Origin: Chloroflexota bacterium
Lineage (GTDB): Bacteria > Chloroflexota > Limnocylindria > Limnocylindrales > CSP1-4
DNA length: 64,000 bases
Direction of reading: 5' to 3'
NCBI GenBank assembly: GCA_040905225.1
Contig: JBBDRY010000110.1
Coordinates: forward strand, 26,395 to 90,394
The notes below the pieces were generated by a model, which was not told where the DNA came from, did no database searches, and saw only the letters and a list, made by a program, of their open reading frames with translations. Positions 14,339 to 61,683 of the stretch are shown here, piece after piece. Each line of letters opens with the position of its first letter. Position 1 is the first letter of the stretch. The translations under genes and the position numbers were made by a program.

Positions 14339-14344
14339 AGGTCC

Positions 14345-14941: not shown

Positions 14942-14947
14942 GTCGGT

Positions 14948-15984: not shown

Positions 15985-16467
15985 GTGACCGAGTCGCTGA
16001 CGTTCCGCGTCAATGGCGCCTCTCGGACGGTCGAGACGGAGCCATGGACTCCCGTGCTCGAGGTTCTTCGCGAGCGTCTCGGCCTGACCGGGACGAAGGA
16101 GGGCTGCGCGGTCGGGGTCTGCGGACTCTGCTCCGTCACCGTCGACGGCGAGCTCCTCTCGGCATGCCTCGTGCCGGTTGCCGCAGTCGCCGGATGCGAC
16201 ATCACCACGGTGGAGGGGCTGGCCGACCAGGAGCGGCTCTCCACGATGCAGGATCAGTTCATCGCGCATGGCGGGTTCCAATGCGGCATCTGCACGCCCG
16301 GTCAGCTCATCGCCGCAACTGCCTTGCTCGACGAGAATCCGCGCCCGAGCGAAGACGACATCCGTGACTGGCTGGGCGGCAACCTGTGTCGCTGCACTGG
16401 CTACCAACAGATCGTGGACTCGGTCAGCGCTGCCGCCGCCTCACGGGCTGGGGACGTCGCGGCATGA
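15985..16467 (+). CDS. (2Fe-2S)-binding small subunit (CoxS-like, set 2)
   Basis: CAVGVCGLCSV, CGICTPGQ and CRCTGY motifs. GTG start. ATGA overlap with the following large subunit. Confidence 0.85.
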   Translation: MTESLTFRVNGASRTVETEPWTPVLEVLRERLGLTGTKEGCAVGVCGLCSVTVDGELLSACLVPVAAVAGCDITTVEGLADQERLSTMQDQFIAHGGFQCGICTPGQLIAATALLDENPRPSEDDIRDWLGGNLCRCTGYQQIVDSVSAAAASRAGDVAA

Positions 16468-21725: not shown

Positions 21726-21859
21726 TTTGCCCTCGTCACGATTGACCCCGGCCGCCGCGCGACCATAAGATACCGTTGCATACAATTACGCGGTTGACGC
21801 GGCGACCGGCTGCCGGCCGCGCCCGTTGGACCAGTTGACGCCCGGCTGGAGGAGCTCGC

Positions 21860-28135: not shown

Positions 28136-28228
28136 GGGTTCCTCATGCGAGGGCGAGCGAGGGTCGCCGGCGGAGGAGGAAGCCGGCGACCCCTGCCCGC
28201 ATGGGCCGAACGTTCTGTCGGGGGACGA

Positions 28229-29731
28229 TCAGGACTGACTGGAGAACGACGTTCCCGGTTCGAGCGGCTTTACGACGCTCGCCGGATCGACGGTCTCCAC
28301 GATGTCCTTGGGCACCTCGCACTTGGGTGGGAAGGTGGCTGGAGGAGCGGGCTTGGTGCAGTCGAGGATCATCTTCGTCTCCATCGGCCCCTTCTCCTCG
28401 CGGTGGTAGCCGTAGGTGACCGGGTTGAGGTGCCCGCCCAGGAAGTTCGGCATCACGATCAGGTCCCGATCGGCCTGGAAGCGGGTCGTCATCGCCCACA
28501 GCACCTGGTCGTTATCGAAGACGTCGATGTCATCGTCGACGATCCAGATGTGCTTGAGGATGGGGTCGACGGCGAACGCCGCCGATGCCGCGATCTTGGG
28601 CTCCCCGTCGACGCGCTTCTTCATGGCGATGAAGAGCGAGGAGCGGATCCCCATGAGTGGCAGGTTGACGGCCGTTACTGTCGGCATCGATTCGCGGACG
28701 CGCCGGTAGATGGAACCCATCCGCGGCAGGGCGCCAAGAACCAGGTGCTCGTCATGCGCGTTGAAGACGTCGACGTAGATGGGATTGCGCCGCATCGTCA
28801 CGGCCGTGATACGCATCCACGGCATCGGGCCGATCCGCGTGTAGTAGAGCGGGTACTCGCCGAATGGTCCCTCGTTCTGAACCTTCTCCGGGTCGGTGTC
28901 GACGACGCCTTCGATGATGATCTCGGCCCGCGCTGGGACGAACATGTCGACGGTCTTGGCCTTGACGACCTCGAGCGGCTCGTTGAGCAAACCGCCCATC
29001 ACCTCCAGCTCGCCGCCGATGCCGGCCAGCTTGGAGACTGCGCCCATCAACATCGCCGGGTGGTGGCCGATCGCGAGCGCGACCTGGAGCGGCTCCTTTC
29101 GCTCGCGGCGGGCACGGAGGATGTACGAGGTGTGGTGTGCCGGGTTGGACATGAAGCCGATCTGGCGCGGGCCCTGGAGCTGATGGCGGAAGATGCCGGC
29201 GTTTTCCCGGCCGGAGTCGGGATCGACCGTGATGGCGGCCGCCGAGGTGATGTACTTGCCGGAGTCGAACTCCTGGTGGATCAGCAGCGGCAGCTGGGTT
29301 ATGTCGATCTCGTCGCCCGTCTGGACGACTTCATGGACGGGGGCCTCCTCGGAGGTGACCTCCTTCCACGGGAGCGGCGAACCCTCACGCTTGCCGTACT
29401 CCGGGACCATCCCCTTGATGTCCGAGTCGATCGACAGGGCTACCCTCTCGAACGTCCCGTGCAGGTTGAGGATCAGCGGGATCTTCGAGCCCTTGATGTT
29501 GCGGAACAGCACGGCCGGGTAGCCCGGAAAGTTCGCGTCGTTCTTCATCTTGTGGACGATGGCCGCGGCCTCGAATACCGGGTCAACCTCCTCGTCCACG
29601 ACCTTGAGCTGATCGGGATAGGTGCTGACCAGCTGGTCGAGGAAGGTGCGCAGGTCCTTCCCGTGGCTCGCTGGTGTGCCGCTTGCCGGTTGCGCGGCGG
29701 TGGTTTCGCTGGGCGTGAGCGTGGTGGCCAT
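28229..29731 (-). CDS. UbiD-family prFMN-dependent decarboxylase, copy 2 (intact)
   Basis: 501 aa from MATTLTPSE. The 850-aa ORF in the track extends out of frame into the DMT gene. Lies 8 nt downstream of the DMT transporter gene. Confidence 0.85.
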   Translation of the reverse strand: MATTLTPSETTAAQPASGTPASHGKDLRTFLDQLVSTYPDQLKVVDEEVDPVFEAAAIVHKMKNDANFPGYPAVLFRNIKGSKIPLILNLHGTFERVALSIDSDIKGMVPEYGKREGSPLPWKEVTSEEAPVHEVVQTGDEIDITQLPLLIHQEFDSGKYITSAAAITVDPDSGRENAGIFRHQLQGPRQIGFMSNPAHHTSYILRARRERKEPLQVALAIGHHPAMLMGAVSKLAGIGGELEVMGGLLNEPLEVVKAKTVDMFVPARAEIIIEGVVDTDPEKVQNEGPFGEYPLYYTRIGPMPWMRITAVTMRRNPIYVDVFNAHDEHLVLGALPRMGSIYRRVRESMPTVTAVNLPLMGIRSSLFIAMKKRVDGEPKIAASAAFAVDPILKHIWIVDDDIDVFDNDQVLWAMTTRFQADRDLIVMPNFLGGHLNPVTYGYHREEKGPMETKMILDCTKPAPPATFPPKCEVPKDIVETVDPASVVKPLEPGTSFSSQS

Positions 29732-31047: not shown

Positions 31048-31082
31048 CCCTGCCGAGCCGACTCGCTGGCTGATCTGTTCGA

Positions 31083-31805
31083 GTGACCTACTGGATCGGC
31101 CGCATCGAGCCCTCGATGTGGTTTGAGGGCGCCTGGTGGCAAGAGATGCTGCCCGCCGATGTCCGCCTGGCCGTCCTCTCGCTCGGAGTGGGCCGCCTCA
31201 CGCCCGAGGAGCTGGAGAGGGCGCACGCTCAGATCCTGGAGAAGGTGGATCTGCTCGAGCGTGAAGGGGTGGACGTCATCAACGTCGGCGGTTCGCCGGT
31301 CGTCACCGCCTACGGCATGGCCGGACATGCGCGCCTGGTCGACGAGATCGCGGCCCGCGTCAGCCGGCCGTTCGTGACAGCGCTCCAGGCCGAGCTCGAG
31401 GGCATCCGCGCAGTCGGGGCGACGCGCGTCGCGATTGCGTCGCCATATCCCGCGGCGCAGACGGAGCGGCGGATCGCCATCCTCGAAGAGGAGGGCTTCC
31501 GGGTCGTCGGCTTCGAGAGCCTGGACATCCTGCGGAACCGCGAGATTGCGATGCTCGATCCGCGCGACGTGATCGATCTGGCCGTGCGAGTGGCCGACGC
31601 GAGCCCCGGCGCGGAGACCGTCTACCTGCCCTGCGGCTCGCTTCCCGTAGTTTCCGTGATCGACGAGATCGAGGCGCGTACCGGGCTGCCCGTGGTCGCC
31701 TGTGCGCAGGCCCAGGTCGCGGCCTGCCTCAAGCGGGTCAGCTATCCGGCACCCATTGATGGGTTCGGCCGTATTTTGAGGGAGATGGCGCCTCTCGCGG
31801 CTTGA
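31083..31805 (+). CDS. Asp/Glu/hydantoin racemase-superfamily protein (maleate isomerase or arylmalonate decarboxylase-like)
   Basis: 240 aa. VINVGGSP, VAIASPYPA and YLPCGSLP blocks are typical of maleate cis-trans isomerases. Confidence 0.65.
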   Translation: MTYWIGRIEPSMWFEGAWWQEMLPADVRLAVLSLGVGRLTPEELERAHAQILEKVDLLEREGVDVINVGGSPVVTAYGMAGHARLVDEIAARVSRPFVTALQAELEGIRAVGATRVAIASPYPAAQTERRIAILEEEGFRVVGFESLDILRNREIAMLDPRDVIDLAVRVADASPGAETVYLPCGSLPVVSVIDEIEARTGLPVVACAQAQVAACLKRVSYPAPIDGFGRILREMAPLAA

Positions 31806-38098: not shown

Positions 38099-38737
38099 TC
38101 ACCCAGCCGGCGGCGCGGGTGCGCCGTCGCCTCTGCTGGTCTCGTTTGAGTCTCCACCGCTTGCGTCGCGCGCGCGGTGACCGCCCCCGTCACTCATCAG
38201 TCGCTGCCTGGCGTCCATGACAGCGTCGAGGATCTTCACGTAGCTCCCGCAGCGGCACAGGTTGCCCCCCAGATATGCGCTCGCCTGATCACGGTCCGCC
38301 TGGGGCTCCTCGTCCAGAAGGGCCTTGGTGGCGACCACGAAACCCGGCGTGCAGTAAGAACACTGGAACCCAGTGTGTTCGACGAATGCGTCCTGGACCG
38401 GGTGGAGCTCGCCGGCCGGGCCAAGCAAACCCTCGACCGTCACGATCTCTCGACCCTCGGCCTGCATTGCGAGCATCAGACAGCCTGACACGATGCGGTC
38501 GTCGACGAGCACCGTGCAGGCGCCACACATCCCGACCCCGCAGCCCTCCCGGATGTCGATCAGGCCGACACGGTTGCGCAGGGCGTCCAGGAGGGTCTCC
38601 TGCGTGCGGACGCGAACCTGATGCTCCATGCCATTTACGCGCAGGACGAGGGTGACCCACTCCGCGTCTGGGTCCGGCGCCTCGGGGAGTGACGGGAAGG
38701 AGGGCGCCGGGGCGCTAAGGAGGTCTTGCTCCATCAC
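38099..38737 (-). CDS. (2Fe-2S)-binding small subunit (CoxS-like, set 3) with N- and C-terminal extensions
   Basis: CGVGMCGACTV, CSYCTPGF and CRCGSYVKI motifs. 212 aa. 4-nt overlap with the large subunit. Confidence 0.8.
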   Translation of the reverse strand: MMEQDLLSAPAPSFPSLPEAPDPDAEWVTLVLRVNGMEHQVRVRTQETLLDALRNRVGLIDIREGCGVGMCGACTVLVDDRIVSGCLMLAMQAEGREIVTVEGLLGPAGELHPVQDAFVEHTGFQCSYCTPGFVVATKALLDEEPQADRDQASAYLGGNLCRCGSYVKILDAVMDARQRLMSDGGGHRARDASGGDSNETSRGDGAPAPPAG

Positions 38738-41118
38738 GCGGCCGCTCCCTCGAGCTCGCGCTCGCCGGAGGCATCCGCGCTGCTCGCAGAGCCGCCCATC
38801 TTGCCGTCGCGCAACTCCTGCAGGCCGCGCAGCACCTTCTCCGGGGTGAGCGGAAGGTCGCGGATGCGCACCCCAGTAGCGCGGTAGACGGCATTGCCAA
38901 TGGCCGGCATGACCGGCGGCAGCGACGTCTCGCCGATACCGTGAATCTCGCGCGCCTCCAGGTGCTCCAACACGTGGATCGAAAGGTCAGCCGGCATGTC
39001 CTCGATGCTCGCGATCATGTAGTCGCCGAGGTTCCCGTTCTGGAGCTGCCCATTGTCGAAGAGCATCTCCTCGTACAGCGCCTGGCCGAGGCCGAACGCA
39101 ACATTGCCCTCCGTCTGGAGCTCCGCCTGCACCGGGTTGATCGTGCGGCCGGAGTACACACCGGCGTGGTAGCGCAGAACTGTGATGTGGCCCGTTTCGA
39201 GGTCCACCTCGACCTCCGCGGCACCGGCCGCCTGATGCCAGTGGACGCTGCCGATTCCCAGGCCTGTCTCCGGGTCCAGGCCGCCCTTCGTCTGGAAAGT
39301 GCCGCTCCCCTGGATGTTGCCGGCACGATCGCGGCGGATCACCTCTCCGTAATCGAGCCCGCGGTCCGGCGCGCCTTTGGGCAGGATCCGCCCATTGGCG
39401 AACTCCAGATCGTCGGGTGCTATCTCGAGCTGCTCGGAGGCCAGCGCGCGCAGCTTCGCCTTGATCTCCTCGATTGCGCCGACGATCGCGCCACCCATCG
39501 CCTGGGTCGAGCGACTGGAGCTCGTCTGCTGGTCATACGGCGTGAAGTCGGTGTCGGGAGAGGAGATCGATATCCGCTCGATGGGTAGCGCCATCGCCTC
39601 GGAGGCCAGAAACGCCATCGCGGTCTGGAGGCCTTGCCCCATCTCGACCGAGCTGGTCAGCACCTGGAGGCTGCCGTCGTCGTTCAGCTTGGCGGCCGCG
39701 GTCGACGTGGACGGCGTGACCGTCCCCTTGATGATGCAGGAGAGGCCCTTGGCCCGCGCCTTGCGGCCGCCATCGAGGAGCGTCCGCCCGCTTTGCCAAT
39801 CGGTGAAGTCCCAGCCGATGCGCCGCGCCGCCTCGTCGAGCAGTTCGTGGAAGTGAGCGTCTTCGATCGGCTCGCCGGTCATCACCGTGTCGCCATCCTT
39901 GAGCAGGTTGATCCGACGAAGCTCGAGCGGGTCCATGGCCAGGCGCTCGGCGATCATGTCCATCTGCGTCTCGTACGCCCAGGCCGCCTGGCTGATGCCG
40001 TAGCCCCGGAACGCCCCGGCCGGCGGGAGGTTGGTGTAGATGGCGTACGAATCGACCCAGACGTTATCGATGGCGTGCGGGCCGCCGGTCCCGTAGCCGC
40101 CGTTCTTGATCAGCCGCGGGCCGATGTCGGCGTACGCCCCGGTGTTGAACCAGCAGGTGCTCTGCCGAGCCAGGATGCGCCCGTTGCCATCAAGACCCGT
40201 CTTCATCCGGATGGACACGCCGTGCTTCGTGACGGTGACGAACTCCTCCTCGCGAGTCAGGTGCAGCCGGACAGGCTTGCCCGTGACTTTTGCGAGGATG
40301 GCCGTGATCGGCTCTATCTTCGGGTAGCACTTGGCCCCGTAACCGCCGCCGAGCGTAAGCACGATGACGCGTACTCGGGAGGCGGGCAGCCCGAACATCT
40401 CCGCCAGTTGCGAGCGGACGATGTACGGGATCTGCGTGCTCGACCAGATCGTCAGCTGGCCGCCGGTGAAAGACGCGACGGCGACGTGCGTCTCGAGCGG
40501 GACGTGCTGGACCGGCGGACTGCTGAACTCGTCCTCGAAGACGTGCGTCGCGCGCGCGAATCCATCCTCCACGTTGCCCTTCCGAAGCCTGAACGAGTTG
40601 CACACGTTCGTGCCGCCCTGCGCGTGGATGATCACGTCGGCGAAGGTCTGTCCGATCCGGGGAGGCCCCTCGTGGAGCAGCGGGGCGCCCGACTCAAGGG
40701 CTTCTCGCGCGTCGAAAACTGCCGGCAGCTCTTCGTACTCGACGTCGATCAGGTCGAGCGCTTCCGCTGCGGTGTCGGCGTCAACTGCGGCCACCGCCGC
40801 GACCGGCTCGCCAACGAAGCGGACCTTGTCGATGGCAAGCGCTGGCTGGTCGCGGAACACCGGGCCGAAGTAGGGGAACACGCCGGCGCGCTCGGCGATC
40901 TCGTCGCCCGTGAGGACGGCGACGACGCCTGGCAGCGTGCGCGCACGGCTTGTGTCGATCCGGCCGATCCTGGCGTGCGCCGCGACGCTTCTGAGCAGCT
41001 TCGCGTGGAGCATCCCCGGAACGGCGACGTCCATCACGTAGGGGACGCGGCCAGTGACCCGCTCTCTTGCGTCGATCATCCCGGGACGGCGCTGGGAGCC
41101 GGCGGAGGAGACGGTCAT
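38734..41118 (-). CDS. xanthine dehydrogenase-family molybdopterin-binding large subunit (set 3)
   Basis: 794 aa from MTVSSAGSQ. The long ORF upstream is out-of-frame overlap. Active-site loop PAGAFRGYGISQ is XDH-type. Confidence 0.8.
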   Translation of the reverse strand: MTVSSAGSQRRPGMIDARERVTGRVPYVMDVAVPGMLHAKLLRSVAAHARIGRIDTSRARTLPGVVAVLTGDEIAERAGVFPYFGPVFRDQPALAIDKVRFVGEPVAAVAAVDADTAAEALDLIDVEYEELPAVFDAREALESGAPLLHEGPPRIGQTFADVIIHAQGGTNVCNSFRLRKGNVEDGFARATHVFEDEFSSPPVQHVPLETHVAVASFTGGQLTIWSSTQIPYIVRSQLAEMFGLPASRVRVIVLTLGGGYGAKCYPKIEPITAILAKVTGKPVRLHLTREEEFVTVTKHGVSIRMKTGLDGNGRILARQSTCWFNTGAYADIGPRLIKNGGYGTGGPHAIDNVWVDSYAIYTNLPPAGAFRGYGISQAAWAYETQMDMIAERLAMDPLELRRINLLKDGDTVMTGEPIEDAHFHELLDEAARRIGWDFTDWQSGRTLLDGGRKARAKGLSCIIKGTVTPSTSTAAAKLNDDGSLQVLTSSVEMGQGLQTAMAFLASEAMALPIERISISSPDTDFTPYDQQTSSSRSTQAMGGAIVGAIEEIKAKLRALASEQLEIAPDDLEFANGRILPKGAPDRGLDYGEVIRRDRAGNIQGSGTFQTKGGLDPETGLGIGSVHWHQAAGAAEVEVDLETGHITVLRYHAGVYSGRTINPVQAELQTEGNVAFGLGQALYEEMLFDNGQLQNGNLGDYMIASIEDMPADLSIHVLEHLEAREIHGIGETSLPPVMPAIGNAVYRATGVRIRDLPLTPEKVLRGLQELRDGKMGGSASSADASGERELEGAAA

Positions 41119-41175: not shown

Positions 41176-43359
41176 ATGCCGTGGCATTCTATTGGACGCC
41201 GAGAGCGTGTCAACGCGCGGGCACCTTGTCACCGGCCGCAGCAAAGGGGTCGTATCACGGATTCCAGCGGAGTCCATTACACGATCGGTGTGGACATCGG
41301 CGGCACGTTTACCGACGTCATCGTGCTCGGCACCGATGGCTCGCTCGAAGAGGCGAAAGCCGCCACCACGCCCCACGACCGGGCCATCGGGGTCATCGAC
41401 GCGATCGTCGCCGCTGCCGACGGCATGGGCATGACCGTGGGCTCGCTGCTCGCTCGGTCCGCGTTCGTCAAGCACGGCAGCACGGTTGCGACCAACGCCC
41501 TGATAACGCGTGCCGGAGTGCGCGTCGGCCTCATCACGACCCGCGGCTTCGAGGACACGACGACGATCATGCGCGCGGTCGGTCGTGTAGACGGGCTGCC
41601 GCCGGAGGAGGTGCGCCACGTTGCGGCGGTGACGAAGCCGGAGCCGCTGGTTTCGGCAGACCTTGTCCGCGGCGTGCGCGAGCGGATCGATGCCTATGGC
41701 CGCGTGATCGTCCCGCTCGTCGAGGACGACGTCCGCCACGCGCTTGACGAGCTCGTCGGTGAGCAGCGCGTGGAGGCGATCGCCGTCAGCCTGCTGCACG
41801 CCTGGCGCAACCCCGTCCATGAGCAGCGGATCCGCGAAATCGTCGAGACGCGCTACCCGGACCGCGAGCTTTACGTCGCCTACGGCGCTCAGCTGTCCGG
41901 TGTTGCGGGCGAGTACGCGCGCACGAACACCGCGGTCGCGGATGCCTTCGTTGGTCCCATCGTGCGAACGTACCTGGCCGACCTCGACGGACGATTGCAG
42001 AGCCTCGGTCTCCACGGCCGCCTCCTGATCATGCAGGGCAACGGCGGACTCGCCGCTCGCGCAGGTGCAACCCCAATCTCGACCCTCCAGTCCGGTCCCG
42101 CCGGTGGGATGCTCGCCGCCGCACACATGAGCGCGGCTCTCGGGCACCGGCGCGTGATCACGACCGACATGGGCGGCACCAGCTTCGACGTCGGGATCCT
42201 CGACGAGGGTCGCTGGCGTTACGCTGAGGAGCCTATCTTCGATCGGTTTCGCATTCTCCAGCCAGTCATGGACATCGTCTCGATCGGGGCGGGTGGCGGC
42301 ACGATGGCCCGTGTCGAGCCCGCCACGAAACGGCTGCTGGTGGGTCCCGAGAGCGCCGGTGCCGCTCCTGGCCCGGTCGCCTACGGCGCAGGCGGCGATA
42401 CCCCGACCGTCACCGACGCCGACCTCGTTCTCGGTTACCTCGACCCGGGCTATTTCCTGGGCGGCAGACGCTCGCTGGACGTGGAAGCGGCCCGTGGCGC
42501 GATCGCGGCGTGCATCTCTGAGCCCCTCGGCATGGACGTGGTGGACGCGGCCGCCGGCATCAAGCGGATCATCGACAGCAAGATGTCCGACCTGATCCGC
42601 CGCGAGGTCGTTCGCAGCGGCTACCTGCCGTCCGCGTTCGTGCTGTACGCGTTCGGCGGCGCGGGACCTGTACACGCCTGTGGTTTCGCGGCCGACCTGG
42701 ACGTCGGCGAGATCCACGTCTTCCCGACGTCTGCGGCCTTCTCCGCGTTCGGGATAGCCATGGCCGACCTGATTCGAACGCGGGTCGCGACGCGCGAGTA
42801 CGCGCTCCCCATCGAGGCCGAGTCGATCAACGCCGATCTCGCCGCGCTGGAGCGCGAGCTTGCCGCCGAGCTGCGTGCCGACGGACTTGGCTCGGAGCCG
42901 GTGTTCCGGAGGTCGGTGACGATGCGCTTCCGGCGGCAGACGACGGGCGAGGAGGTCGCGCTGCCCTGGGACCGTCTGACGGACGCGCGACTGGCCGAGC
43001 TGGTCACGCTGTTCGTCCAGCGCTACGAGGAGCTCTATGGCGCCGGTACTGCGTATGTCGACGCCGGCATCGACATCAACGCCATCCGCGTCGACGCCGT
43101 GTCCGAGGTAGCGAAGCCCGAGCTGCGACCCGAGCCACCGGCCGCGGACACCGATGCTTCAGTCGCGCGCAAGGCAATCCGACCGGCGTGGTTCGATGGC
43201 GCCATGGTCGAGACGCCGGTCTTTGAGCACGATCGCCTCCCGGTCGGGTCGCGGCTCAACGGCCCCGCTATCGTGGAGTCGCCCTTCACGACGATCGTCG
43301 TGCCGACCCGATGGGAGGCGGCGGTGGACCCGTATCGCGCGCTGGTTCTGCGCCGATGA
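41176..43359 (+). CDS. hydantoinase/oxoprolinase-family protein A (HyuA-like)
   Basis: YTIGVDIGGTFTDV N-terminal ATPase motif. Start uncertain; the first ATG at 41176 gives a ~35-aa leader. Divergent from the set-3 large subunit. Confidence 0.8.
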   Translation: MPWHSIGRRERVNARAPCHRPQQRGRITDSSGVHYTIGVDIGGTFTDVIVLGTDGSLEEAKAATTPHDRAIGVIDAIVAAADGMGMTVGSLLARSAFVKHGSTVATNALITRAGVRVGLITTRGFEDTTTIMRAVGRVDGLPPEEVRHVAAVTKPEPLVSADLVRGVRERIDAYGRVIVPLVEDDVRHALDELVGEQRVEAIAVSLLHAWRNPVHEQRIREIVETRYPDRELYVAYGAQLSGVAGEYARTNTAVADAFVGPIVRTYLADLDGRLQSLGLHGRLLIMQGNGGLAARAGATPISTLQSGPAGGMLAAAHMSAALGHRRVITTDMGGTSFDVGILDEGRWRYAEEPIFDRFRILQPVMDIVSIGAGGGTMARVEPATKRLLVGPESAGAAPGPVAYGAGGDTPTVTDADLVLGYLDPGYFLGGRRSLDVEAARGAIAACISEPLGMDVVDAAAGIKRIIDSKMSDLIRREVVRSGYLPSAFVLYAFGGAGPVHACGFAADLDVGEIHVFPTSAAFSAFGIAMADLIRTRVATREYALPIEAESINADLAALERELAAELRADGLGSEPVFRRSVTMRFRRQTTGEEVALPWDRLTDARLAELVTLFVQRYEELYGAGTAYVDAGIDINAIRVDAVSEVAKPELRPEPPAADTDASVARKAIRPAWFDGAMVETPVFEHDRLPVGSRLNGPAIVESPFTTIVVPTRWEAAVDPYRALVLRR

Positions 43360-45581
43360 GCGTGCCGGTGGCGCACGAGACGCGCCTGGACCCGGTCGCC
43401 TACGAGGTGTTCGCCCACAGGCTCTGGGCGATCGGGGAGGAGGGCCGCATCGCGCTCCAGCGGGTCACCGCGTCGCCGATCGTCGCCCAGGGCGGCGAAT
43501 GCATGTGCTCCTTCTACGACACGGACGGCAGGATGATCCTCGCCTGCTCGGGCCATCTGCGCTTCGCTTCCGCGACGTCGGACGCGATCAGGCGCGTGAT
43601 CGAGTGGTACCAGGACGACCCCGGGATCTTCGAGGGCGACGAGTTCTTCTTCAACGACCCCTACGTGGCCGGTTCCCACACCTACGACGTCATCCAGATG
43701 GCGCCCGTATTCCACGACGGCCACAGGATCGGCTGGGTCGCGTCGAGCTCCCATACCGCCGACACCGGCGGGGTGCTGCGCGGCCAGGCGACCGAGATCT
43801 ACCACGAGGGGATCCGCATCCTGGGCTTGAAGATCGTCGACCGAGGCATCTTCCGGCAGGACGTTTTCCGCACGATCGTCGAGCAGTGCCGCGACCCGCA
43901 CTATGTTGGCCTCGACCTGAAGTCGCGGACCGCGGCCAACAGCGTCTGCGCGCGCGGGCTGCTCCGCCTGGTCGAGGAGCTTGGTGTCGAGTTTGTCGAC
44001 GCCGCCGGCCGCCGCCTGATTGAAGATTCCGAGCGGCTGGCCCGAGAGAAGCTGCGGCGGATTCCAGACGGGACCTGGCGGTCGCGCATCTACGGCTCGG
44101 CACGCAACGCGGCCACAAATACGGCCGAGCCATACCAGGTCGTCTGCACGGCAACCAAGACGGGCGATCAGCTGGTGCTCGATTTCGACGGCTCGAGCGC
44201 GCAGCTTGGCAACGACCAGAACTCGACTCTGCCGTCGACGACGGCTCACGTCGCGATCGCGCTGACCAATCAGCTGTTCTGGGACGTTCCCTGGAGCGAC
44301 GGCAAGATGGCGCCGGTCGACATCCGCGTCCCGGAGGGCAGCGCCCTCAACTGCCGTTTCCCGGCCGCCTGTGGGCGCTCTCCGCGGATCGGCCAGTACG
44401 TTGTTGAGGCCGTGCGCGAGTGCCTGTCGCGGATGCTCTTCGCGGCCGGGATCGAGGAGGACGTGAACGCGTCGTGGGGGTCGTTCTGGTACCTCGGCGG
44501 GCCGGGTTTCTTCTACGGCGGCCACAACGCCCGGGGCCTGCCAAACCCGCAGGGCCTGTACGACATCCACGGCGGCGGCATGGGCGCAGCCCCGCTGCGC
44601 GACGGCGTCAACACCGGCGGCCAGTCGAACATCCCGTCCGGCGGCATCAGCGACGTCGAGCGGATCGAGCTCCAGTACCCATTCGTCTACTTCACGCGCC
44701 GACACAATCCGGACGGTGGCGGCGCAGGCCGCTGGAACGGCGGCAACGGCAGCGCCCGGCTGCTCATGGTTCACGGGTCGCGCGACCTCTCCGTCGATCA
44801 CGCTCCATACGGCGGCTTGCCGCAGGGCGCCTTCGGGCTCTTTGGCGGCTATCCGGCGGGCACGGGCGGAATGAGGGCGGTGCTCGAGGCGGCCGGTGAT
44901 CTGCCCGAGCGCCTCCAGGCAGGCGGCTATCCGATCGACCCCGATGATGCGCTGGCAGACGGCTGGGCAGAAACGTGGGTGCCGCCCACGGATTCCGGCC
45001 GCATCCGGGTCGCGGAAGGCTGGCTGGTGAGCGACTTCACGCAGGGCGGCGGCGGGTACGGCGATCCGCTCGATCGCGAACCGGTGCGCGTGGCCGACGA
45101 CGTCGCCAGACGCCTGGTGACACACAGAACGGCGGAGCTGCTCCACGGTGTCGTGCTGCGCGACGGCGGCATCGTGGACGACGACGCGACCGAAGCGCGA
45201 AGGCACGCGATCCGCGAGGAACGGCGCAGCGGAACGGCCGCGCGTGCGCTGCCAACCCAGCCAGCCGGGTGGGAGCTCGTGCTCCCGTACCACGCGCTCC
45301 TGGAGCTCGGGCGCAACGACTCTGGGCACTGGATCCGCTGCTCGCGGTGCCACACCGTGCTCTCGCGCGGCGACGAGAACCCAAAGCTTGCCTGCCTGCG
45401 GCGCGACCGCGACCTGAGCGAGCTGAGCGGCCGGGCGCTGCCCGACGGATCTCCACACATCGGCGTCCTGCGCGAGTACGCGTGCCCGGGCTGCGCGACG
45501 CTCGTCCAGGTCGACGTCTTCTGCCCTTCACTCGGCGGCGAGGAGGATCTCTGGGATACGCGCATCGAGATCGCGCCATGA
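43356..45581 (+). CDS. hydantoinase B/oxoprolinase-family protein (HyuB-like) with a C-terminal Cys4 zinc-ribbon extension
   Basis: DPVAYEVF...GGECMCSFYD is the hydantoinase_B core. ATGA overlap with hyuA-like. C-terminus has CSRC...CPGC. Confidence 0.8.
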   Translation: MSVPVAHETRLDPVAYEVFAHRLWAIGEEGRIALQRVTASPIVAQGGECMCSFYDTDGRMILACSGHLRFASATSDAIRRVIEWYQDDPGIFEGDEFFFNDPYVAGSHTYDVIQMAPVFHDGHRIGWVASSSHTADTGGVLRGQATEIYHEGIRILGLKIVDRGIFRQDVFRTIVEQCRDPHYVGLDLKSRTAANSVCARGLLRLVEELGVEFVDAAGRRLIEDSERLAREKLRRIPDGTWRSRIYGSARNAATNTAEPYQVVCTATKTGDQLVLDFDGSSAQLGNDQNSTLPSTTAHVAIALTNQLFWDVPWSDGKMAPVDIRVPEGSALNCRFPAACGRSPRIGQYVVEAVRECLSRMLFAAGIEEDVNASWGSFWYLGGPGFFYGGHNARGLPNPQGLYDIHGGGMGAAPLRDGVNTGGQSNIPSGGISDVERIELQYPFVYFTRRHNPDGGGAGRWNGGNGSARLLMVHGSRDLSVDHAPYGGLPQGAFGLFGGYPAGTGGMRAVLEAAGDLPERLQAGGYPIDPDDALADGWAETWVPPTDSGRIRVAEGWLVSDFTQGGGGYGDPLDREPVRVADDVARRLVTHRTAELLHGVVLRDGGIVDDDATEARRHAIREERRSGTAARALPTQPAGWELVLPYHALLELGRNDSGHWIRCSRCHTVLSRGDENPKLACLRRDRDLSELSGRALPDGSPHIGVLREYACPGCATLVQVDVFCPSLGGEEDLWDTRIEIAP

Positions 45582-46786
45582 CCGGTCCGCTCGTCGGGCT
45601 GAGCGTCGTCGAGGTGGCGAGCTACGTCACCGGTCCCTACGCCTGCGCGCTGCTGGCCGACATGGGCGCACAGGTCGTGAAGGTCGAGCCCATGGAGCAG
45701 GGCGACCCGTTCCGCGGCTGGGGGAAGGGCGGCTACTCGCCGACGTTCCGTTCCGTGAACCGCGGCAAACGCAGCCTCTCTCTTGACCTTCGGAGCGCCG
45801 CGGGGCGGGACATCGTCCTCGAGCTGGCGGCGCGTGCCGATGTCCTCGTCGAGAACCACCGGCCGGGGACCGTTGAGCGGCTCGGCATCGGCTACGAAGA
45901 GGTTCGGAGGCGCAACCCGCGGATCGTCTACTGCTCGATCTCGGGGTTCGGGTCGAGCGGGCCGTACCGGGACCGGCCGGGCTACGACACGGTAGGGCAG
46001 GCGGTCAGCGGCCTCTTGAGCCTCCTGACGGACCTCGACCGGCCGCGGCCGATGGGTATCTCACTCTCCGACCACCTGACCGGGCTGTACGCCTGCTACG
46101 GGATCCTCGCCGCGTTGGTCGGCCGGTCCGTAAATGGCGAGGGACGCCTCGTCGAGACCTCGCTGCTGCAGGCGACCACGGCCTTCCTTGCCGAGAACGC
46201 CGCGCGCTACTTCGCCGAAGGCGACGTGCCCACACGCGAGACCCGTGCCGAGATCGCGCAGGCCTATGCCTTCGTCTGCGGTGACGGGCTTCCATTCGCG
46301 ATCCATCTATCCTCCCCGCCGAAGTTCTGGGAGGGCTTGACCGAGGCGATCGGCCGCCCGGACCTGCGCGACGACGCGCGCTTCGTGGACCGCGCGGCGA
46401 GGGTCCGGCACTACCGCGCGCTCGAGGAGATCCTCGCCCAGGCGTTCGCCACCGCGCCACGCGCGGAGTGGCTCGAGCGGCTCGACCGGCACGATGTCCC
46501 GGCCGGCCCTATCAACCGCCTCGACGAAGTGTTCGTTGATCCCGGCGTGCGCCACCTCGGGCTTACACAGGAGGTGGTCCATCCCACCGCAGGTGCGATG
46601 ACATTGCTCGGAGCAGGGGTCACCGTGGCCGGCCACGACGAGGCCTCGATCGCGCCACCGCCACTGCTTGGGGAGCACACCGACGAGATCCTCGGAGAGA
46701 TTGGAATTGCCGGTGCCGATCTCGAAAGGCTCGCGGCCGAAGGCGTCATCCGTCGTCCGGCCCCGGCCGCCAAGGGCGCGACGTGA
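45578..46786 (+). CDS. family III CoA-transferase (CaiB/BaiF family)
   Basis: LVGLSVVEVASYVTGPYACALLADMGAQVVKVEP N-terminus. 402 aa. ATGA overlap upstream and GTGA overlap downstream. Confidence 0.85.
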   Translation: MTGPLVGLSVVEVASYVTGPYACALLADMGAQVVKVEPMEQGDPFRGWGKGGYSPTFRSVNRGKRSLSLDLRSAAGRDIVLELAARADVLVENHRPGTVERLGIGYEEVRRRNPRIVYCSISGFGSSGPYRDRPGYDTVGQAVSGLLSLLTDLDRPRPMGISLSDHLTGLYACYGILAALVGRSVNGEGRLVETSLLQATTAFLAENAARYFAEGDVPTRETRAEIAQAYAFVCGDGLPFAIHLSSPPKFWEGLTEAIGRPDLRDDARFVDRAARVRHYRALEEILAQAFATAPRAEWLERLDRHDVPAGPINRLDEVFVDPGVRHLGLTQEVVHPTAGAMTLLGAGVTVAGHDEASIAPPPLLGEHTDEILGEIGIAGADLERLAAEGVIRRPAPAAKGAT

Positions 46787-47583
46787 GCGACACCGGCGAG
46801 TCGCGCGACGTGGCCGAGCCTCGCCCGCTGCGCACGCGACTGGGCCACGCGCTTCCCGATCGAGTACTCGTCCGCGGGCACGACCTGACCGCCGACCTCC
46901 TGGGCAACATCACTTACACCGACATGGTCTCCCTCATGCTGCTCGGCCGGCTGCCAACCGAGGCCGAGCGGCGGATGCTCGACGCGCTGCTCGTCGTGCT
47001 GGTCGAGCACGGACTGGTGAAGCCCGTGGTCGCTGCCCGTTTCGTCTACAGCAACGCGCCCGAGTCTCTCCAGGCGGCCGTGGCCGCATCGCTTCTGGGC
47101 GCCGGCAGCAAGCATCTTGGATCGAGCGAGTGGTGCGCTCGGATGCTCCAGGAAGCGATCGGGCGGGAATCGACGGACGAAGAGGTGGCGGCCGCCGGCG
47201 AGCGCGTCGTCGAGGCTTTCCGAGAGCGGCGCGAGCGGATCCCGGGCATCGGCCACCGGACGCACGCCGCAGGCGACCCGCGCGCGGATCGGCTCTTCGA
47301 GATCGCCCGCGAGACTGGAACCTACGGGCCCTACTCGGCGCTGCTCGAAAGGATCGCCGTCGTGGCCGGGGAGCGCGCCGGCCGGGGGCTACCCGTCAAC
47401 GTCACCGGCGCCATCGCCGCCATCGCGTCGGACATGGGCTTCCGCTGGGAGATCACGAGGGCGTTCGCCCTGATCGGCAGGACGCTCGGGGCACTGGCGC
47501 ATATCCAGGAGGAGATGGACGAGCCGATCAGCGACGCGCTGATCGAGCGGATCCGGCGCGATGTCGAGTACGAAACCGACTGA
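46783..47583 (+). CDS. short citrate-synthase-family protein (citryl-CoA lyase-like)
   Basis: GHRTHAAGDPRA matches the GHRVYK..DPR citrate synthase signature. 266 aa, the short form. Confidence 0.65.
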   Translation: MSDTGESRDVAEPRPLRTRLGHALPDRVLVRGHDLTADLLGNITYTDMVSLMLLGRLPTEAERRMLDALLVVLVEHGLVKPVVAARFVYSNAPESLQAAVAASLLGAGSKHLGSSEWCARMLQEAIGRESTDEEVAAAGERVVEAFRERRERIPGIGHRTHAAGDPRADRLFEIARETGTYGPYSALLERIAVVAGERAGRGLPVNVTGAIAAIASDMGFRWEITRAFALIGRTLGALAHIQEEMDEPISDALIERIRRDVEYETD

Positions 47584-48445
47584 GGAGTTCACCCCGGCGG
47601 AGATGCCGACGTCGATCGGGCTTCCCGGCGCGGGCATCAGGATGCACGCCCTCGATTGGGGCCCCGAGACCGCACCGCGCCTGATCCTGCTGCTCCACGG
47701 CGTCGCGGGCAACGCGCACATCTGGGATGCCGTTGCGAAACGGCTCAGCGCGCGACTCGGGGACGCGGCCCGGGTCGTCGCTCTAGACGGCCGCGACGGC
47801 GGGTTGACAGACCATCCCGCCGCGGGCTATTCGCCCACAGACTTCGGCGCCGATCTCCTGGCTGTCCACGATGCCCTCGGCCGGCGCCCCTTGACGCTGG
47901 TGGGGCATTCTCGTGGCGGATGGCTCGCGGCGTGGTTTGCCGAGCGCCACCCGGACCGCATGGGACGGCTTGTGCTGGTCGATCCCGCCCGGCTCCACTT
48001 CGTCTCCGACGAGTTGTCTGACCGCTTCTTCCGCCGCGTCCTCGAAGGACTCGGCCCCTTCCCGTCAGACGACGCGGCCCTGGAATGGGCGCGCGGCGAG
48101 GATCCGGGAGGAGACTGGAACGAGCATCGGCGGCGCGGCTTCCTGGCGAACTTCCGCAAGCTTGACGATGGATCGCTCGTCGGGCACCTGCCGGCACATG
48201 CCGTGGCACAGCTCAGGCGCGGAGCTGGGGAGGATCCTGTAGGGCCGTTCCTCGACCGTGTCCGTTGCCCGACGCTGCTCATGGTCGGGACGCGCCAGCA
48301 GCCGGACCGCATCGAGGACAAGCTGGCCTACGCCGACGGCATCCGCGACTGCCAGGTCATGAGACTCCCGGCGAGCCACTTCATTCACACCGACCTCCCC
48401 GACGAGACGGCCGAGGCAATCGCAGCCATCCTCGCCGGCAGCTGA
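47561..48445 (+). CDS. alpha/beta hydrolase
   Basis: LLHGVAGNAHIW and GHSRGG nucleophile elbow. 294 aa. Confidence 0.75.
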   Translation: MSSTKPTEEFTPAEMPTSIGLPGAGIRMHALDWGPETAPRLILLLHGVAGNAHIWDAVAKRLSARLGDAARVVALDGRDGGLTDHPAAGYSPTDFGADLLAVHDALGRRPLTLVGHSRGGWLAAWFAERHPDRMGRLVLVDPARLHFVSDELSDRFFRRVLEGLGPFPSDDAALEWARGEDPGGDWNEHRRRGFLANFRKLDDGSLVGHLPAHAVAQLRRGAGEDPVGPFLDRVRCPTLLMVGTRQQPDRIEDKLAYADGIRDCQVMRLPASHFIHTDLPDETAEAIAAILAGS

Positions 48446-56680: not shown

Positions 56681-56689
56681 AGTCGGACC

Positions 56690-57808
56690 GTGACCGTCGA
56701 GCTCAACGGGATCCGCCTGCGCAACCGGCTGCTGACCTCGGCCAGCCTGCTCGGCTACGGTGCGGGCAAGGGCCGGCTGATCCTCTACGGGCTGTCGCCG
56801 ATCGCCCAGTGGGTGCCGCTCGAGCGGTTCGGCGCCGTCGTGACGCGGACCATGACCGTCCAGCCCCGCGAAGGCCACTTCACGCTCCGCGAGGACTGGA
56901 AGATCTGGCAGTTCCCCGAGATGCTCGGCATGTATTCGCGCGCTCTGCGCCGCGTAGACGCGGGCTGGTTGAACGCTTTCGGCTGGTCGAACATCGGGAT
57001 CGATCGGTACTTCGAGGAATACGAGCGGAGGACGCGGAAGCAGAACCGCATTCTCTCGCTAGGTGGCTTCTCTGCCGAGGAATTCGGCTCGCTCGTTGAA
57101 ACCGTGAACCAGCGCATGAAGCCGGGCGAGATTGCCGCGGTCGAGTTCAACGTCTCGTGCCACAACGTGAACTTTCCCTTCGAGACGATCCTGGAGGACG
57201 TCCTGGCGACCGCGGTTCCGCTGTCCCGCCACCCGGTCATCCTCAAGCTCTCGCCCGACTACGACTACGTCGAGCACGCCCACATGGCGGCGCGCCACGG
57301 AGTCGCCGCCCTGACCGCCATCAACGCCGTCAAGGCGCTGCGGCTGGATCCCAGGACCGGGGAGCCGCTGCTCAAGAACCGCTACGGCTCGCTGTCCGGC
57401 CGTGCCATCAAGCCGATCGGCCTGCGCATCGTTTCGGAGCTGCGGGAGGCCGGCGTCCGCCTGCCGATCATCGCGTCGGCCGGGATCCGGACGTTCGACG
57501 ACTGCCGCGAGTTCTTTTGGGCAGGTGCAGACGCAGTCTCGCTCGGCTCTGCGGTCTGGCTCAAGCCGATGCCGCTCTACGCGCTTGGCCCGCTCGAGGG
57601 TCTGCGCATCCGCCGGCTGATCGGCAAGGTCGAGCGTTACGACGTGCCCGAGCGCAAGCCTCAGCCGATCGACTTCACCCCGCACCCGCTCGAGGCTGAG
57701 CCGTACGAGGCTGAGCCGTACGACGCCGAGCCGGACGAGGCTGAGCCATACGAGGCCGGCGAGGGCGTGCGCGACGAGGCGGAGCTCGCCGGCACCGGGA
57801 CTCGTTGA
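56690..57808 (+). CDS. dihydroorotate dehydrogenase-family protein (PyrD/PreA-like TIM-barrel flavoenzyme) with an acidic EAEPY-repeat tail
   Basis: EFNVSCHNVNFP (cf. NLSCPN) and IIASAGIRTFDD are DHOD-family blocks. The C-terminus is EAEPYEAEPYDAEPDEAEPYEAGEG. Confidence 0.7.
   Translation: MTVELNGIRLRNRLLTSASLLGYGAGKGRLILYGLSPIAQWVPLERFGAVVTRTMTVQPREGHFTLREDWKIWQFPEMLGMYSRALRRVDAGWLNAFGWSNIGIDRYFEEYERRTRKQNRILSLGGFSAEEFGSLVETVNQRMKPGEIAAVEFNVSCHNVNFPFETILEDVLATAVPLSRHPVILKLSPDYDYVEHAHMAARHGVAALTAINAVKALRLDPRTGEPLLKNRYGSLSGRAIKPIGLRIVSELREAGVRLPIIASAGIRTFDDCREFFWAGADAVSLGSAVWLKPMPLYALGPLEGLRIRRLIGKVERYDVPERKPQPIDFTPHPLEAEPYEAEPYDAEPDEAEPYEAGEGVRDEAELAGTGTR
57682..57756. repeat. 15-bp imperfect tandem repeat x5 (GAGGCTGAGCCGTAC) encoding the EAEPY tail
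   Basis: Read directly. Confidence 0.85.
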
Positions 57809-59462: not shown

Positions 59463-59550
59463 TCGCATCCGAGACGTCCCGCCGCGACGGTAGTCTGTTC
59501 CGGGAGGAGAGAGCACCTGTGATCTTTCAGCGGCAGGCAGGGACCGCTCG

Positions 59551-60165
59551 GTGACGGACGGTTCGCCCAGGCGGATCGTGGTCGGGATGTCCGGCTCCAG
59601 CGGCGCGATTTTCGGTATCCGCCTCCTGGAGGTGCTTTCCCGGGTCCCGGAGCTCGAGACCCACCTCGTGATGAGCACCGCGGCCGCACAGACGATCGCC
59701 CTCGAGACCGACTACAAGCCGCGCGACGTCGAGGCGCTGGCGACCAGGAGCTACAAGATCGGCGACATCGCCGCATCGCTGTCGAGCGGCTCGTTCCGGA
59801 CTGATGGCATGATCGTCGTGCCCTGCTCGATGAAGTCCGTAGCGGCCATCGCCTACGGCTACGACGAGAACCTGCTCTCGCGGGCAGCGGACGTGACGCT
59901 CAAGGAGAGGCGCCGGCTGATCGTCTGCCCCAGGGAGACGCCGCTCCACCTGGGCCACCTCCGGGCGCTCACCCAGCTGGCCGAGATCGGCGCGATCGTC
60001 GCGCCGCTGATGCCGGCGTTCTACGGCCGACCAAGCTCGATCGACGATCTCGTGGACCACCAGGTCGGACGCCTGCTCGACCTGATCGGTGTGAACGTCG
60101 AGGGGCTGGCCTTTCGCTGGCAGGGCGCGAAGAGCGCGTCGCCGGAGGCTAAGGCCGATGACTGA
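59551..60165 (+). CDS. ubiX: flavin prenyltransferase UbiX (prFMN synthase)
   Basis: [22 protein letters not shown]...[19 protein letters not shown]...[13 protein letters not shown] aligns across the whole E. coli UbiX length. 204 aa. Confidence 0.9.
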
Positions 60166-61674: not shown

Positions 61675-61683
61675 ATTCGGCTG

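Follow-up and report, generated by a model that had tools for sequence, protein, structure and literature searches.

A widespread HyuA/HyuB-gamma operon with CoA-transferase and citryl-CoA lyase-like partners in a Chloroflexota bacterium

The 64-kb stretch of DNA analysed here (the window; contig JBBDRY010000110.1 of a Chloroflexota bacterium, GC content ~68%) carries at 41176-47583 four co-oriented genes. They encode a HyuA-type subunit, a HyuB-type subunit with a zinc-ribbon extension, a family-III CoA-transferase, and a short citrate-synthase-fold protein of the "citryl-CoA lyase-like" (CCL-like) kind. All coordinates are positions in the window.

41176-43359, plus strand: HyuA-type subunit, 727 amino acids (aa)
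43356-45581, plus strand: HyuB-type subunit with fused gamma domain, 741 aa
45578-46786, plus strand: family-III CoA-transferase, 402 aa
46783-47583, plus strand: short citrate-synthase-fold protein (CCL-like), 266 aa

Each neighbouring pair of genes shares 4 nucleotides (nt), as read directly from the sequence. Start and stop codons overlap as ATGA between the HyuA and HyuB genes (gcgccgATGAgcg at 43356) and between the HyuB and CoA-transferase genes (gcgccATGAccg at 45578), and as GTGA between the CoA-transferase and CCL-like genes (gacGTGAgcg at 46783). The same 4-nt overlaps were called in orthologous operons of other assemblies (L081, L082, L085, and L093) and are thus conserved and not accidental. 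An earlier interpretation made from the DNA alone (the sequence-only reading) had proposed a four-gene coupled operon, and the overlaps at all three junctions, found again in the orthologous operons, bear this out. Its further proposal of a tight stoichiometric coupling was deduced from the overlaps alone, and such overlaps are common in operons.

HyuB comprises a core, a helical linker (residues ~572-640), and a C-terminal domain, with the following features:

43356-45275, plus strand: HyuB-type core (beta in the unified naming), Pfam Hydantoinase_B, residues 12-571, E 4e-106
43497-43499, plus strand: metal ligand E48, aligned with Glu89 of the acetone carboxylase (Acx) alpha subunit
43677-43679, plus strand: metal ligand H108, aligned with Acx alpha His150
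43686-43688, plus strand: metal ligand D111, aligned with Acx alpha Asp153
43752-43754, plus strand: metal ligand H133, aligned with Acx alpha His175
45276-45581, plus strand: gamma-subunit domain, residues 641-741, Cys4 zinc-ribbon
45339-45350, plus strand: CSRC, first Cys pair of the gamma domain (C662/C665)
45483-45494, plus strand: CPGC, second Cys pair of the gamma domain (C710/C713)

The C-terminal domain was compared with the carboxylase families, as the sequence-only reading had proposed, and it matched the gamma subunits of acetone carboxylase and acetophenone carboxylase (Apc) in Pfam, PDB, and Foldseek searches. The Pfam model PF08882 (Acetone_carb_G) aligned with residues 641-724 at 26.1 bits, against a gathering threshold of 21. 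When the last 133 residues were searched with phmmer against the PDB (E<=10), only the Apc small subunit (5l9w_C) and Acx gamma (5svb_C and 5m45_C) were recovered, with both Cys pairs aligned. In an AlphaFold2 model of HyuB (46 homologues; mean predicted local distance difference test score (pLDDT) 85.6, predicted template-modelling (TM) score 0.89), the domain had a pLDDT >90. Apart from matches to the large subunits, the Foldseek results above noise were limited to Acx gamma chains (probability 1.0) and to 5l9w_C (TM-score 0.61, root-mean-square deviation 3.3). The residues C662, C665, C710, and C713 were invariant in 46 homologues (57-80% identity), in line with the Cys4 zinc ribbon noted earlier; in Acx gamma, zinc is bound by Cys74/76/124/127 (PMC5543143), and in Apc gamma by Cys22/25/75/78 (PMC5214803). 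Sequence and model comparisons thus identify the HyuB extension as a fused acetone/acetophenone-carboxylase gamma subunit that is real and conserved. Such an extension had rightly been called unusual for hydantoinases. The gamma subunit is described for Acx and Apc but for none of the hydantoinases or lactamases, and the acx gene order is alpha-beta-gamma (PMC5214803).

That the extension arises from a missed stop codon or a frameshift can be dismissed with near certainty. Canonical acx operons do have a separate gamma gene 3' of the HyuB-type gene, and a tblastn match in Haladaptatus falls into two annotated genes. However, the frame is open throughout 43356-45581, the length of ~740 aa recurs in ~120 listed homologues taken from independent assemblies, and the linker and domain are conserved and were modelled confidently as one chain. 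The invariance of the four Cys residues in 46 homologues likewise argues against a wrong stop, and the extension is genuine.

HyuA (alpha in the unified Acx/Apc/Hyd naming) gave a full-length match to the Pfam model Hydantoinase_A (E 3e-81), with Hydant_A_N and Hydant_A_C matched in addition. It contains the ATP motifs VDIGGTFTD (D40), TDMGGTS (D331), and AAPGP, together with the interface motif RERIDAYG; the ATP-binding motifs (DxGGTxxD, DxGGT, and GxxPGP) and the interface motif were defined previously (PMC8453981, PMC5214803). Its best PDB match was the core subunit of acetophenone carboxylase (5l9w_B, 450 bits), ahead of the caprolactamase subunit CapA (368), Acx beta (364), and N-methylhydantoinase (328). 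The NCBIfam scores were 503 for CapA against a cut-off of 1000 and 463 for ApcC against 1500. HyuA is present in a single copy, and tblastn with HyuA revealed no second HyuA-type gene in the 64-kb window.

The ranking was similar for HyuB. The PDB sequence matches were led by ApcD (5l9w_A, 5.7e-52) and Acx alpha (5.9e-49), followed by N-methylhydantoinase (1.6e-42) and CapB (1.5e-34), and Foldseek placed Acx alpha (2e-39) and Apc (6e-37) ahead of N-methylhydantoinase (4e-32) and CapB (2e-27). In the structural alignments, identity was 24-27% to Acx alpha and Apc (about 26-27% to Acx). NCBIfam scores were 161 for CapB (cut-off 1000) and 188 for ApcD (cut-off 1500).

The four predicted metal ligands, E48, H108, D111, and H133, were invariant in 46 homologues (57-80% identity) and correspond to Glu89, His150, Asp153, and His175, the metal ligands of Acx alpha (PMC5543143). 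The first of them is a Glu within ASPIVAQGGE, the counterpart of ASPIVEQEGE with Glu89 in Acx alpha, whereas Apc, N-methylhydantoinase, and CapB have an Asp at this position (alignment; PMC5543143, PMC8453981). Judged by alignment, the HyuB metal site is of the acetone-carboxylase type.

Taken together, the paired Hydantoinase_A- and Hydantoinase_B-type polypeptides, the ATP motifs, and the four-residue metal site place the two proteins within the hydantoinase/oxoprolinase-ketone carboxylase superfamily. The marks of the gamma-bearing carboxylases were also found, namely a Cys4 gamma (as a fused domain) and large subunits nearer to Acx and Apc, a nearness that concerns score ranking only. By these comparisons, both large subunits are closer to the carboxylases than to the lactamases and hydantoinases, and HyuA/HyuB-gamma appears as a separate clade on the carboxylase side of the family, without a characterised member.

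AcxABC of Xanthobacter autotrophicus (5svb, 5svc, and 5m45) shares with the operon the order HyuA-type, HyuB-type, gamma, as well as a single ATP-binding subunit, a Glu-His-Asp-His site with the ASPIV.Q.GE motif, and a Cys4 zinc domain; Acx alpha is the top structural match of the HyuB model. In contrast, the gamma of the window is fused to HyuB and is shorter at its N-terminal side, missing ~50 residues that Acx gamma has there; the HyuB core has ~630 aa compared with 776 aa for Acx alpha, and the partners are a family-III CoA-transferase and a CCL-like protein rather than the usual acetoacetate-handling genes. An acetone carboxylase proper was rejected on the fused gamma, the core of ~630 aa, the 26-27% identity, and the lack of a match to the Acx equivalog.

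By sequence, HyuA (450 bits) and HyuB (5.7e-52) are each matched best by ApcABCDE of Aromatoleum aromaticum (5l9w). The small Cys4 subunit of Apc shows CxxC...CPGC spacing and reached the top TM-score against the gamma domain, and the Apc carboxylation product also goes on to a CoA thioester. However, the operon lacks the alpha-prime (second HyuA-type) and epsilon subunits, the first metal ligand is Glu where Apc has Asp, a CoA-transferase replaces the ligase, and no thiolase is present in the operon. Acetophenone carboxylase proper was therefore rejected as well (no alpha-prime or epsilon; ApcC 463 and ApcD 188 against cut-offs of 1500).

The characterised lactamases and hydantoinases (CapAB, 6yra; N-methylhydantoinase, 7hk5/9h03; IaaCE) belong to the same superfamily and share its two-site architecture. 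HyuA reached 503 bits on the CapA model, and the indoleacetate (Iaa) cluster, like the window, brings together a molybdenum (Mo) hydroxylase, a family-III CoA-transferase, and a Hyd-type enzyme. Unlike HyuB, these enzymes have no gamma and have Asp as the first metal ligand, and they gave the weakest HyuB matches. A canonical 5-oxoprolinase, N-methylhydantoinase, or caprolactamase was rejected on the presence of gamma, on NCBIfam equivalog scores far below cut-off, and on the weakest PDB matches for HyuB; the locus is not the canonical 5-oxoprolinase operon that had been considered beforehand.

The CoA-transferase and the citrate-synthase-fold protein

The third protein matched Pfam CoA_transf_3 over its full length (positions 1-366 of 366, E 8e-113) and is of the CaiB/BaiF/Frc type. 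Its best PDB matches were formyl-CoA transferase (10uh, 251 bits) and human succinate-hydroxymethylglutarate CoA-transferase (SUGCT; 9br7, 237 bits), and its best NCBIfam match was succinate-glutarate CoA-transferase, with 252 bits against a cut-off of 750. The catalytic Asp was located by alignment, and the fourth protein carries a substitution at its own catalytic position:

46070-46072, plus strand: catalytic Asp D165 of the CoA-transferase, in GISLSDHLTG
47404-47406, plus strand: T208 (ACC) of the CCL-like protein, in place of the catalytic Asp, in an NVT motif

D165 falls in the active-site Asp column of 10uh, 4ed9, 9br7, and 4hl6, which we take to be Asp169 in Frc numbering and Asp173 in YfdE numbering. 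Like the family-III enzymes Frc, YfdE, SUGCT, and SmtAB, the protein has a full CoA_transf_3 domain and the catalytic Asp, and its closest relatives are of the dicarboxylate or oxalate type; unlike them, it falls under every equivalog cut-off. Its sequence relationships suggest a di- or tricarboxylic acid as the substrate, and no more than that.

The CCL-like protein matched the C-terminal domain of Pfam Citrate_synt and the NCBIfam subfamily NF004868 (292 bits, cut-off 193), and its best PDB match was the citryl-CoA lyase of Hydrogenobacter (6hxp_A, 1.4e-46), in which NVDGA aligns with NVTGA of the window protein. In pig citrate synthase, the catalytic triad is His274/His320/Asp375, with Asp375 in an NVD motif. 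The CCL-like protein has the short fold and keeps H111, H158, R167, and R233, equivalent to His274, His320, Arg329, and Arg401 of citrate synthase, but the triad is incomplete, with both His kept and Asp replaced by Thr. This NVT motif was found in all 34 CCL-like orthologues encoded beside HyuB-gamma.

Compared with the citryl-CoA lyase of Hydrogenobacter thermophilus (6hxp), the protein shares the short citrate-synthase fold and the thioester- and oxaloacetate-binding His/His/Arg/Arg residues. It differs from this lyase and from citrate synthase by the change of Asp to Thr and of HGGA to HLGS, by the lack of a citryl-CoA synthetase partner, and by being always found beside HyuAB-gamma. Neither a citryl-CoA synthetase (CcsAB) nor an ATP-citrate lyase fusion was detected in the operon or in its conserved neighbourhood. 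A true citryl-CoA lyase was rejected because the catalytic Asp is Thr in 34/34 orthologues; for the same reason, the name "citryl-CoA lyase" is unsafe here, and the final carbon-carbon lyase cleavage proposed in the sequence-only reading does not hold as worded.

Short citrate-synthase-fold proteins are diverse at this position. In a full-library search (P0241-P0390), ~30 of ~135 alignable representatives keep N-x-D, and NVT, NAT, NAA, NVS, and NGA variants are common. Thr, Ala, Ser, or Gly occupies the Asp position in most of the representatives, and many also lack the equivalent of His274. From these alignments, it is probably often wrong to name short citrate-synthase-fold proteins citryl-CoA lyase or citrate synthase, or to treat them as markers of the reverse tricarboxylic acid (TCA) cycle; such proteins in these genomes mostly lack the catalytic base and should not count as reverse-TCA markers.

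Distribution and conserved neighbourhoods

The HyuB-gamma fusion is common, with hundreds of metagenomic proteins, chiefly from Chloroflexota, Actinomycetota, and Binatia. The best 120 HyuB homologues listed are all ~725-775 aa long and mostly contain both PF02538 and PF08882. A scan of one genome per species yielded 285 relatives, the best 80 of which all come from metagenome-assembled genomes (MAGs) of Chloroflexota, Actinomycetota, Candidatus Binatia, "Deltaproteobacteria", and SAR202. Distant fused forms with 28-31% identity are encoded on replicons of cultured organisms, namely Mycobacterium branderi, Halorientalis marina, and Rhodococcus opacus. The extension is therefore not rare, being found in essentially all close homologues and also in these distant fusions. 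The fusion of M. branderi (a Mycobacterium plasmid) keeps CARC...CPAC and that of the haloarchaeon H. marina keeps CRNC...CPEC. In the HyuB of R. opacus pCP105 (L089, 7902-10211), the fused domain is present but all four Cys are lost, with no CxxC in the last 150 residues, so that the zinc site is dispensable in at least one lineage. The HyuAB pairs of R. opacus pCP105 and H. marina adjoin short-chain dehydrogenases/reductases (SDRs) and acyl-CoA ligases.

The neighbourhoods were analysed by tblastn with the window proteins against 85 non-redundant loci. A CCL-like gene was found <=6 kb from HyuB-gamma in 30 loci spanning Chloroflexota, Actinomycetota, and Binatia, accompanied by HyuA in 28 and by a family-III CoA-transferase in 26 of them. 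The retention of the CoA-transferase and CCL-like genes in 26-30 loci across phyla indicates that the four-gene module is conserved and that its partners are not incidental. Thirteen loci from Chloroflexota and Actinomycetota have the arrangement of the window, HyuA-HyuBgamma-CoA-transferase-CCL (class A), in a permuted order in a Pseudonocardiales MAG. A search starting from the CCL-like protein revealed the four-gene operon in two more loci (L092 and L093). In Binatia (class B), HyuA-HyuBgamma-CCL is followed by two tandem CoA-transferases on the opposite strand, along with UbiD, an SDR, enoyl-CoA hydratase, 2-hydroxyacid dehydrogenase, an enolase-superfamily protein, and a CN-hydrolase. In class C (16 loci), a thiolase-like and a DUF35 protein stand in place of the CCL-like protein, and the HyuB-gamma paralogues are 55-60% identical. 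We found no published description of a HyuAB-gamma/CoA-transferase/CCL-like module in the literature searched for this gene combination.

Several other genes recur close to the class-A operons. CoxL-type genes of Mo-hydroxylases lie <=10 kb away in 6 of the 13 loci, and orthologues of the window CoxL at 38734-41118 (68-75% identity) lie <=6 kb from the operon in L082 and L093. An orthologue (72-78%) of the dihydroorotate-dehydrogenase-like (DHO_dh-like) gene of the window was located 2-3 kb from HyuB-gamma in L002, L003, L022, and L082. Genes for UbiD, UbiX, IclR, luciferase-like monooxygenases, RraA-like proteins, and phosphoenolpyruvate (PEP)-mutase/isocitrate-lyase (ICL)-like proteins were also recurrent. 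An isochorismatase-like amidase gene lies directly 3' of the operon in L092, and an enoyl-CoA hydratase gene precedes the module in L085 and is nearby in 12 loci with a CCL-like gene.

A number of additional arrangements were observed. The class-B CoA-transferase pair is read as one ~808-aa open frame in L031 (13056-15482, minus strand) and L035 (13228-15651, minus strand) and may be fused, or tandem like SmtA/SmtB. Candidatus Binatia genomes encode several HyuB-gamma paralogues, up to four or five copies in single genomes, and many of these paralogues (54-61%; L010, L012, L014-L020, L023-L025, L039, L044, L050, and others) have no HyuA within 10 kb. Among the 39 loci without a CCL-like or thiolase gene, only 9 have a HyuA-type gene <=10 kb away. 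The HyuA-less copies in Binatia might borrow a HyuA encoded elsewhere. One Chloroflexota locus (L086, identical to L087 and L088; 10001-20961) contains two HyuB-gamma paralogues, the first accompanied by genes for a CoA-transferase and an M24 peptidase/creatinase-like protein, though not by an adjoining HyuA, the second in a HyuA-HyuBgamma-thiolase-DUF35 operon under an IclR regulator.

Predicted chemistry and alternatives

By analogy with Acx and Apc, the operon may encode a two-polypeptide, Acx-type (alpha-beta-gamma)2 ATP-dependent carboxylase whose acid product would be passed to CoA and then processed as a CoA ester. We give this reading a probability of roughly 0.45. HyuA would phosphorylate an enolisable carbonyl substrate and bicarbonate, and the activated species would react with each other at the Glu-His-Asp-His site of HyuB, forming a beta-keto acid or another carboxylated acid, with the Cys4 domain presumably having a structural role. 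From the pairing of the genes, the family-III CoA-transferase would then turn the acid into a CoA thioester, and the citrate-synthase-fold protein would bind and process this ester, whose acid part is most likely di- or tricarboxylic. Because the oxaloacetate- and thioester-polarising residues are kept while the enolising Asp is absent, the chemistry of the last step is probably not canonical citryl-CoA cleavage.

Carboxylation is favoured by the gamma domain, by the rankings of both large subunits, and by the Acx-type Glu ligand and its motif. It is also favoured by the thiolase and DUF35 partners of the paralogues with 55-60% identity, the classical means of handling a beta-keto acid formed by carboxylation, and by the SDR and ligase partners of the distant fusions, which follow a logic from alcohol to ketone, beta-keto acid, and CoA ester. 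To our knowledge, only two kinds of biotin-independent, ATP-dependent ketone carboxylase, both gamma-bearing, have been characterised, and their gamma is thought to be structural.

Several points weigh against such a carboxylase. The presence of gamma does not dictate the chemistry in a clade without a characterised member, and a ketone-generating step was not found within the operon itself. A beta-ketoacyl-CoA is normally taken up by a thiolase rather than by a citrate-synthase-fold protein, and the catalytic base is missing from the CCL-like protein. Furthermore, the class-A neighbourhood, with its Mo-hydroxylases, the DHO_dh-like reductase, the amidase of L092, and UbiD/UbiX, as well as the class-B CN-hydrolase, fits the opening of a lactam or imide, and the indoleacetate cluster joins a Hyd-type lactamase with a Mo-hydroxylase and a family-III CoA-transferase (PMC5214803).

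These neighbours raise the possibility, somewhat unlikely in our view but a serious competitor, that HyuA/HyuB-gamma hydrolyses lactams or cyclic imides with ATP during the catabolism of N-heteroaromatic acids. A Mo-hydroxylase would generate a pyridone or oxo ring, the DHO_dh-like flavoenzyme would reduce it, HyuAB would open it with ATP, and amidases would free ammonia. The family-III transferase would then attach CoA to the di- or tricarboxylic acid so formed, and the CCL-like protein would process the ester. A citrazinate/isonicotinate-type route to a citryl-CoA-like ester, reportedly described by Kretzer, Frunzke and Andreesen in 1993, would be one version of this scheme. In favour of a hydrolase are the CoxL-type genes in 6/13 class-A loci, including the orthologues of the window CoxL in L082 and L093, the DHO_dh-like orthologues near HyuB-gamma in L002, L003, L022, and L082, and the isochorismatase-like amidase after the operon in L092 and the CN-hydrolase in class-B loci. 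The window itself holds three CoxL-type genes, three UbiD-type genes, and one UbiX gene, and the CoA-transferase resembles dicarboxylate enzymes such as SUGCT. The indoleacetate cluster offers a precedent, with a Hyd-type gamma-lactamase accompanied by CoA enzymes (PMC5214803). However, every characterised lactamase or hydantoinase of the superfamily is devoid of gamma, both subunits and the metal-site motif are nearer to the carboxylases, and ATP is usually not needed to open cyclic imides or pyridone-derived rings. In addition, class-B (Binatia) and class-C loci have no Mo-hydroxylase beside the module, and true citryl-CoA cleavage requires an Asp that is missing from the CCL-like protein. 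The sequence-only reading had left the first step as either lactam or hydantoin opening or carboxylation; the protein evidence favours the latter, while the genomic context keeps the hydrolase alive.

The order of the steps might also be reversed, which is attractive as chemistry but seems improbable. The CoA-transferase would activate a tertiary 3-hydroxy acid resembling citrate, citramalate, or hydroxymethylglutarate, and the CCL-like protein would cleave the CoA ester to acetyl-CoA and a ketone or 2-oxo acid. HyuAB-gamma would carboxylate this carbonyl product, a methyl ketone or pyruvate, for example, being turned into a beta-keto acid or oxaloacetate. The keto-acid-binding residues H158, R167, and R233 of the CCL-like protein, the similarity of the CoA-transferase to succinate-hydroxymethylglutarate CoA-transferase, and the enoyl-CoA hydratase before the module in L085 and nearby in 12 CCL-bearing loci are consistent with such an order, and the evidence for a carboxylase applies to it equally. 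Nevertheless, all 34 orthologues have Thr in place of the Asp that would have to protonate or deprotonate the enolate of acetyl-CoA, the carboxylation of pyruvate or acetoacetate by this enzyme class would be unprecedented, and the order of the steps is not fixed by any of the data.

An ordinary member of a characterised type (Acx, Apc, caprolactamase, N-methylhydantoinase, or 5-oxoprolinase) with incidental neighbours is very improbable: the Pfam domains are common to all of these and alpha, beta, and gamma make up the Acx composition, but the proteins score far below every NCBIfam equivalog cut-off, share 24-27% identity with Acx alpha and Apc, lack alpha-prime and epsilon, have gamma fused, and are accompanied by the CoA-transferase and CCL-like partners in 26-30 loci.

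The Acx-type carboxylase reading could be extended further, to a new carbon-carbon route in uncultured Chloroflexota, Actinomycetota, and Binatia that combines the gamma-fused enzyme with a citrate-synthase-fold protein retooled by the change of Asp to Thr; this we consider decidedly doubtful. In such a route, a carbonyl compound derived from a ring would be carboxylated by HyuAB-gamma, or activated by it with ATP in some other way, and candidate reactions for the CCL-like protein are a base-independent or decarboxylative condensation or cleavage, or a non-thiolytic cleavage of a beta-keto-dicarboxyl-CoA. If true, it would give a new function to the large "citryl-CoA lyase-like" family.

Overall, the operon represents an uncharacterised, widespread variant of a known enzyme kind with an unusual citrate-synthase-fold partner, and is not categorically new. 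A clade with covalently fused gamma offers a simpler, two-protein system for studying the ketone-carboxylase class, and its link to a CoA-transferase and an Asp-less citrate-synthase-fold protein points to a catabolic route not yet assigned. Chloroflexota, Binatia, and SAR202 relatives, in which the clade occurs, are known mostly from metagenomes.

Gene starts and the surrounding catabolic genes

The starts of two of the genes deserve comment. For HyuA, the ATG at 41176 is the sole canonical in-frame start and results in a leader of 32 aa, which is missing from the orthologues; these begin 6-12 aa ahead of YTIGVDIGGT. Scans for terminators and promoters within the operon stayed at chance level, except for a minus-strand sigma-70-type site (TTGACA-16-TAGAAT, 11/12 match) at 41213-41186, inside this leader. 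Comparison with the orthologues suggests that the true start may be a non-canonical in-frame ATC at 41254, after AAAGGGG, which would give an orthologue-like N-terminus. This doubt leaves the operon finding unaffected. The HyuB protein at NCBI (P0001, 737 aa, from a Chloroflexota MAG) is identical to that of the window but begins 4 codons downstream, a start that would abolish the first overlap; the orthologous sequences favour the overlapping start.

Downstream of the CCL-like gene lies an alpha/beta-fold hydrolase gene that may be the fifth gene of the operon:

47561-48445, plus strand: alpha/beta-fold hydrolase, Pfam Abhydrolase_1 and Abhydrolase_6, 23-nt overlap with the CCL-like gene

It has an alternative ATG at 47604 and a weak NCBIfam likeness to PcaD-type enol-lactonases. 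By tblastn, no orthologue was found in the other loci, although L081 and L085 have different alpha/beta hydrolase genes beside the operon. Further downstream, the genes of a convergent ABC transporter begin.

On the other side, two Mo-hydroxylase genes are divergent from the operon and probably share its regulon, and related catabolic genes are distributed across the window:

38734-41118, minus strand: CoxL/XdhA-type Mo-hydroxylase large subunit (Ald_Xan_dh_C, MoCoBD_1, MoCoBD_2), divergent from the operon
38099-38737, minus strand: [2Fe-2S] small subunit, CoxS (Fer2, Fer2_2), divergent from the operon
4499-6847, plus strand: CoxL-type large subunit
16368-18776, plus strand: CoxL-type large subunit
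8675-9646: CoxM
15964-16467: CoxS
2879-4401, minus strand: UbiD-type gene, tblastn match in two pieces in different frames (4338-3811 and 3820-2921)
21839-23356, plus strand: UbiD-type gene
28316-29659, minus strand: UbiD-type gene
59494-60165: UbiX-like
56681-57808: DHO_dh-like reductase
13433-14344: PEP-mutase/ICL-like
14345-14947: RraA-like
14948-15871: luciferase-like monooxygenase
19977-21785: thiamine diphosphate enzyme
1814-2878: ring-hydroxylase-like
27020-28228: bicupin
31074-31805: arylmalonate-decarboxylase/maleate-isomerase-like
61675-62568: MoxR/CoxD-like AAA protein

Given its two-piece match, the UbiD-like gene at 2879-4401 may contain a frameshift, be a pseudogene, or reflect an assembly error. 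As a whole, the window resembles a single island for the catabolism of (hetero)aromatic acids, in which the operon module probably handles a ring-derived carbonyl intermediate.

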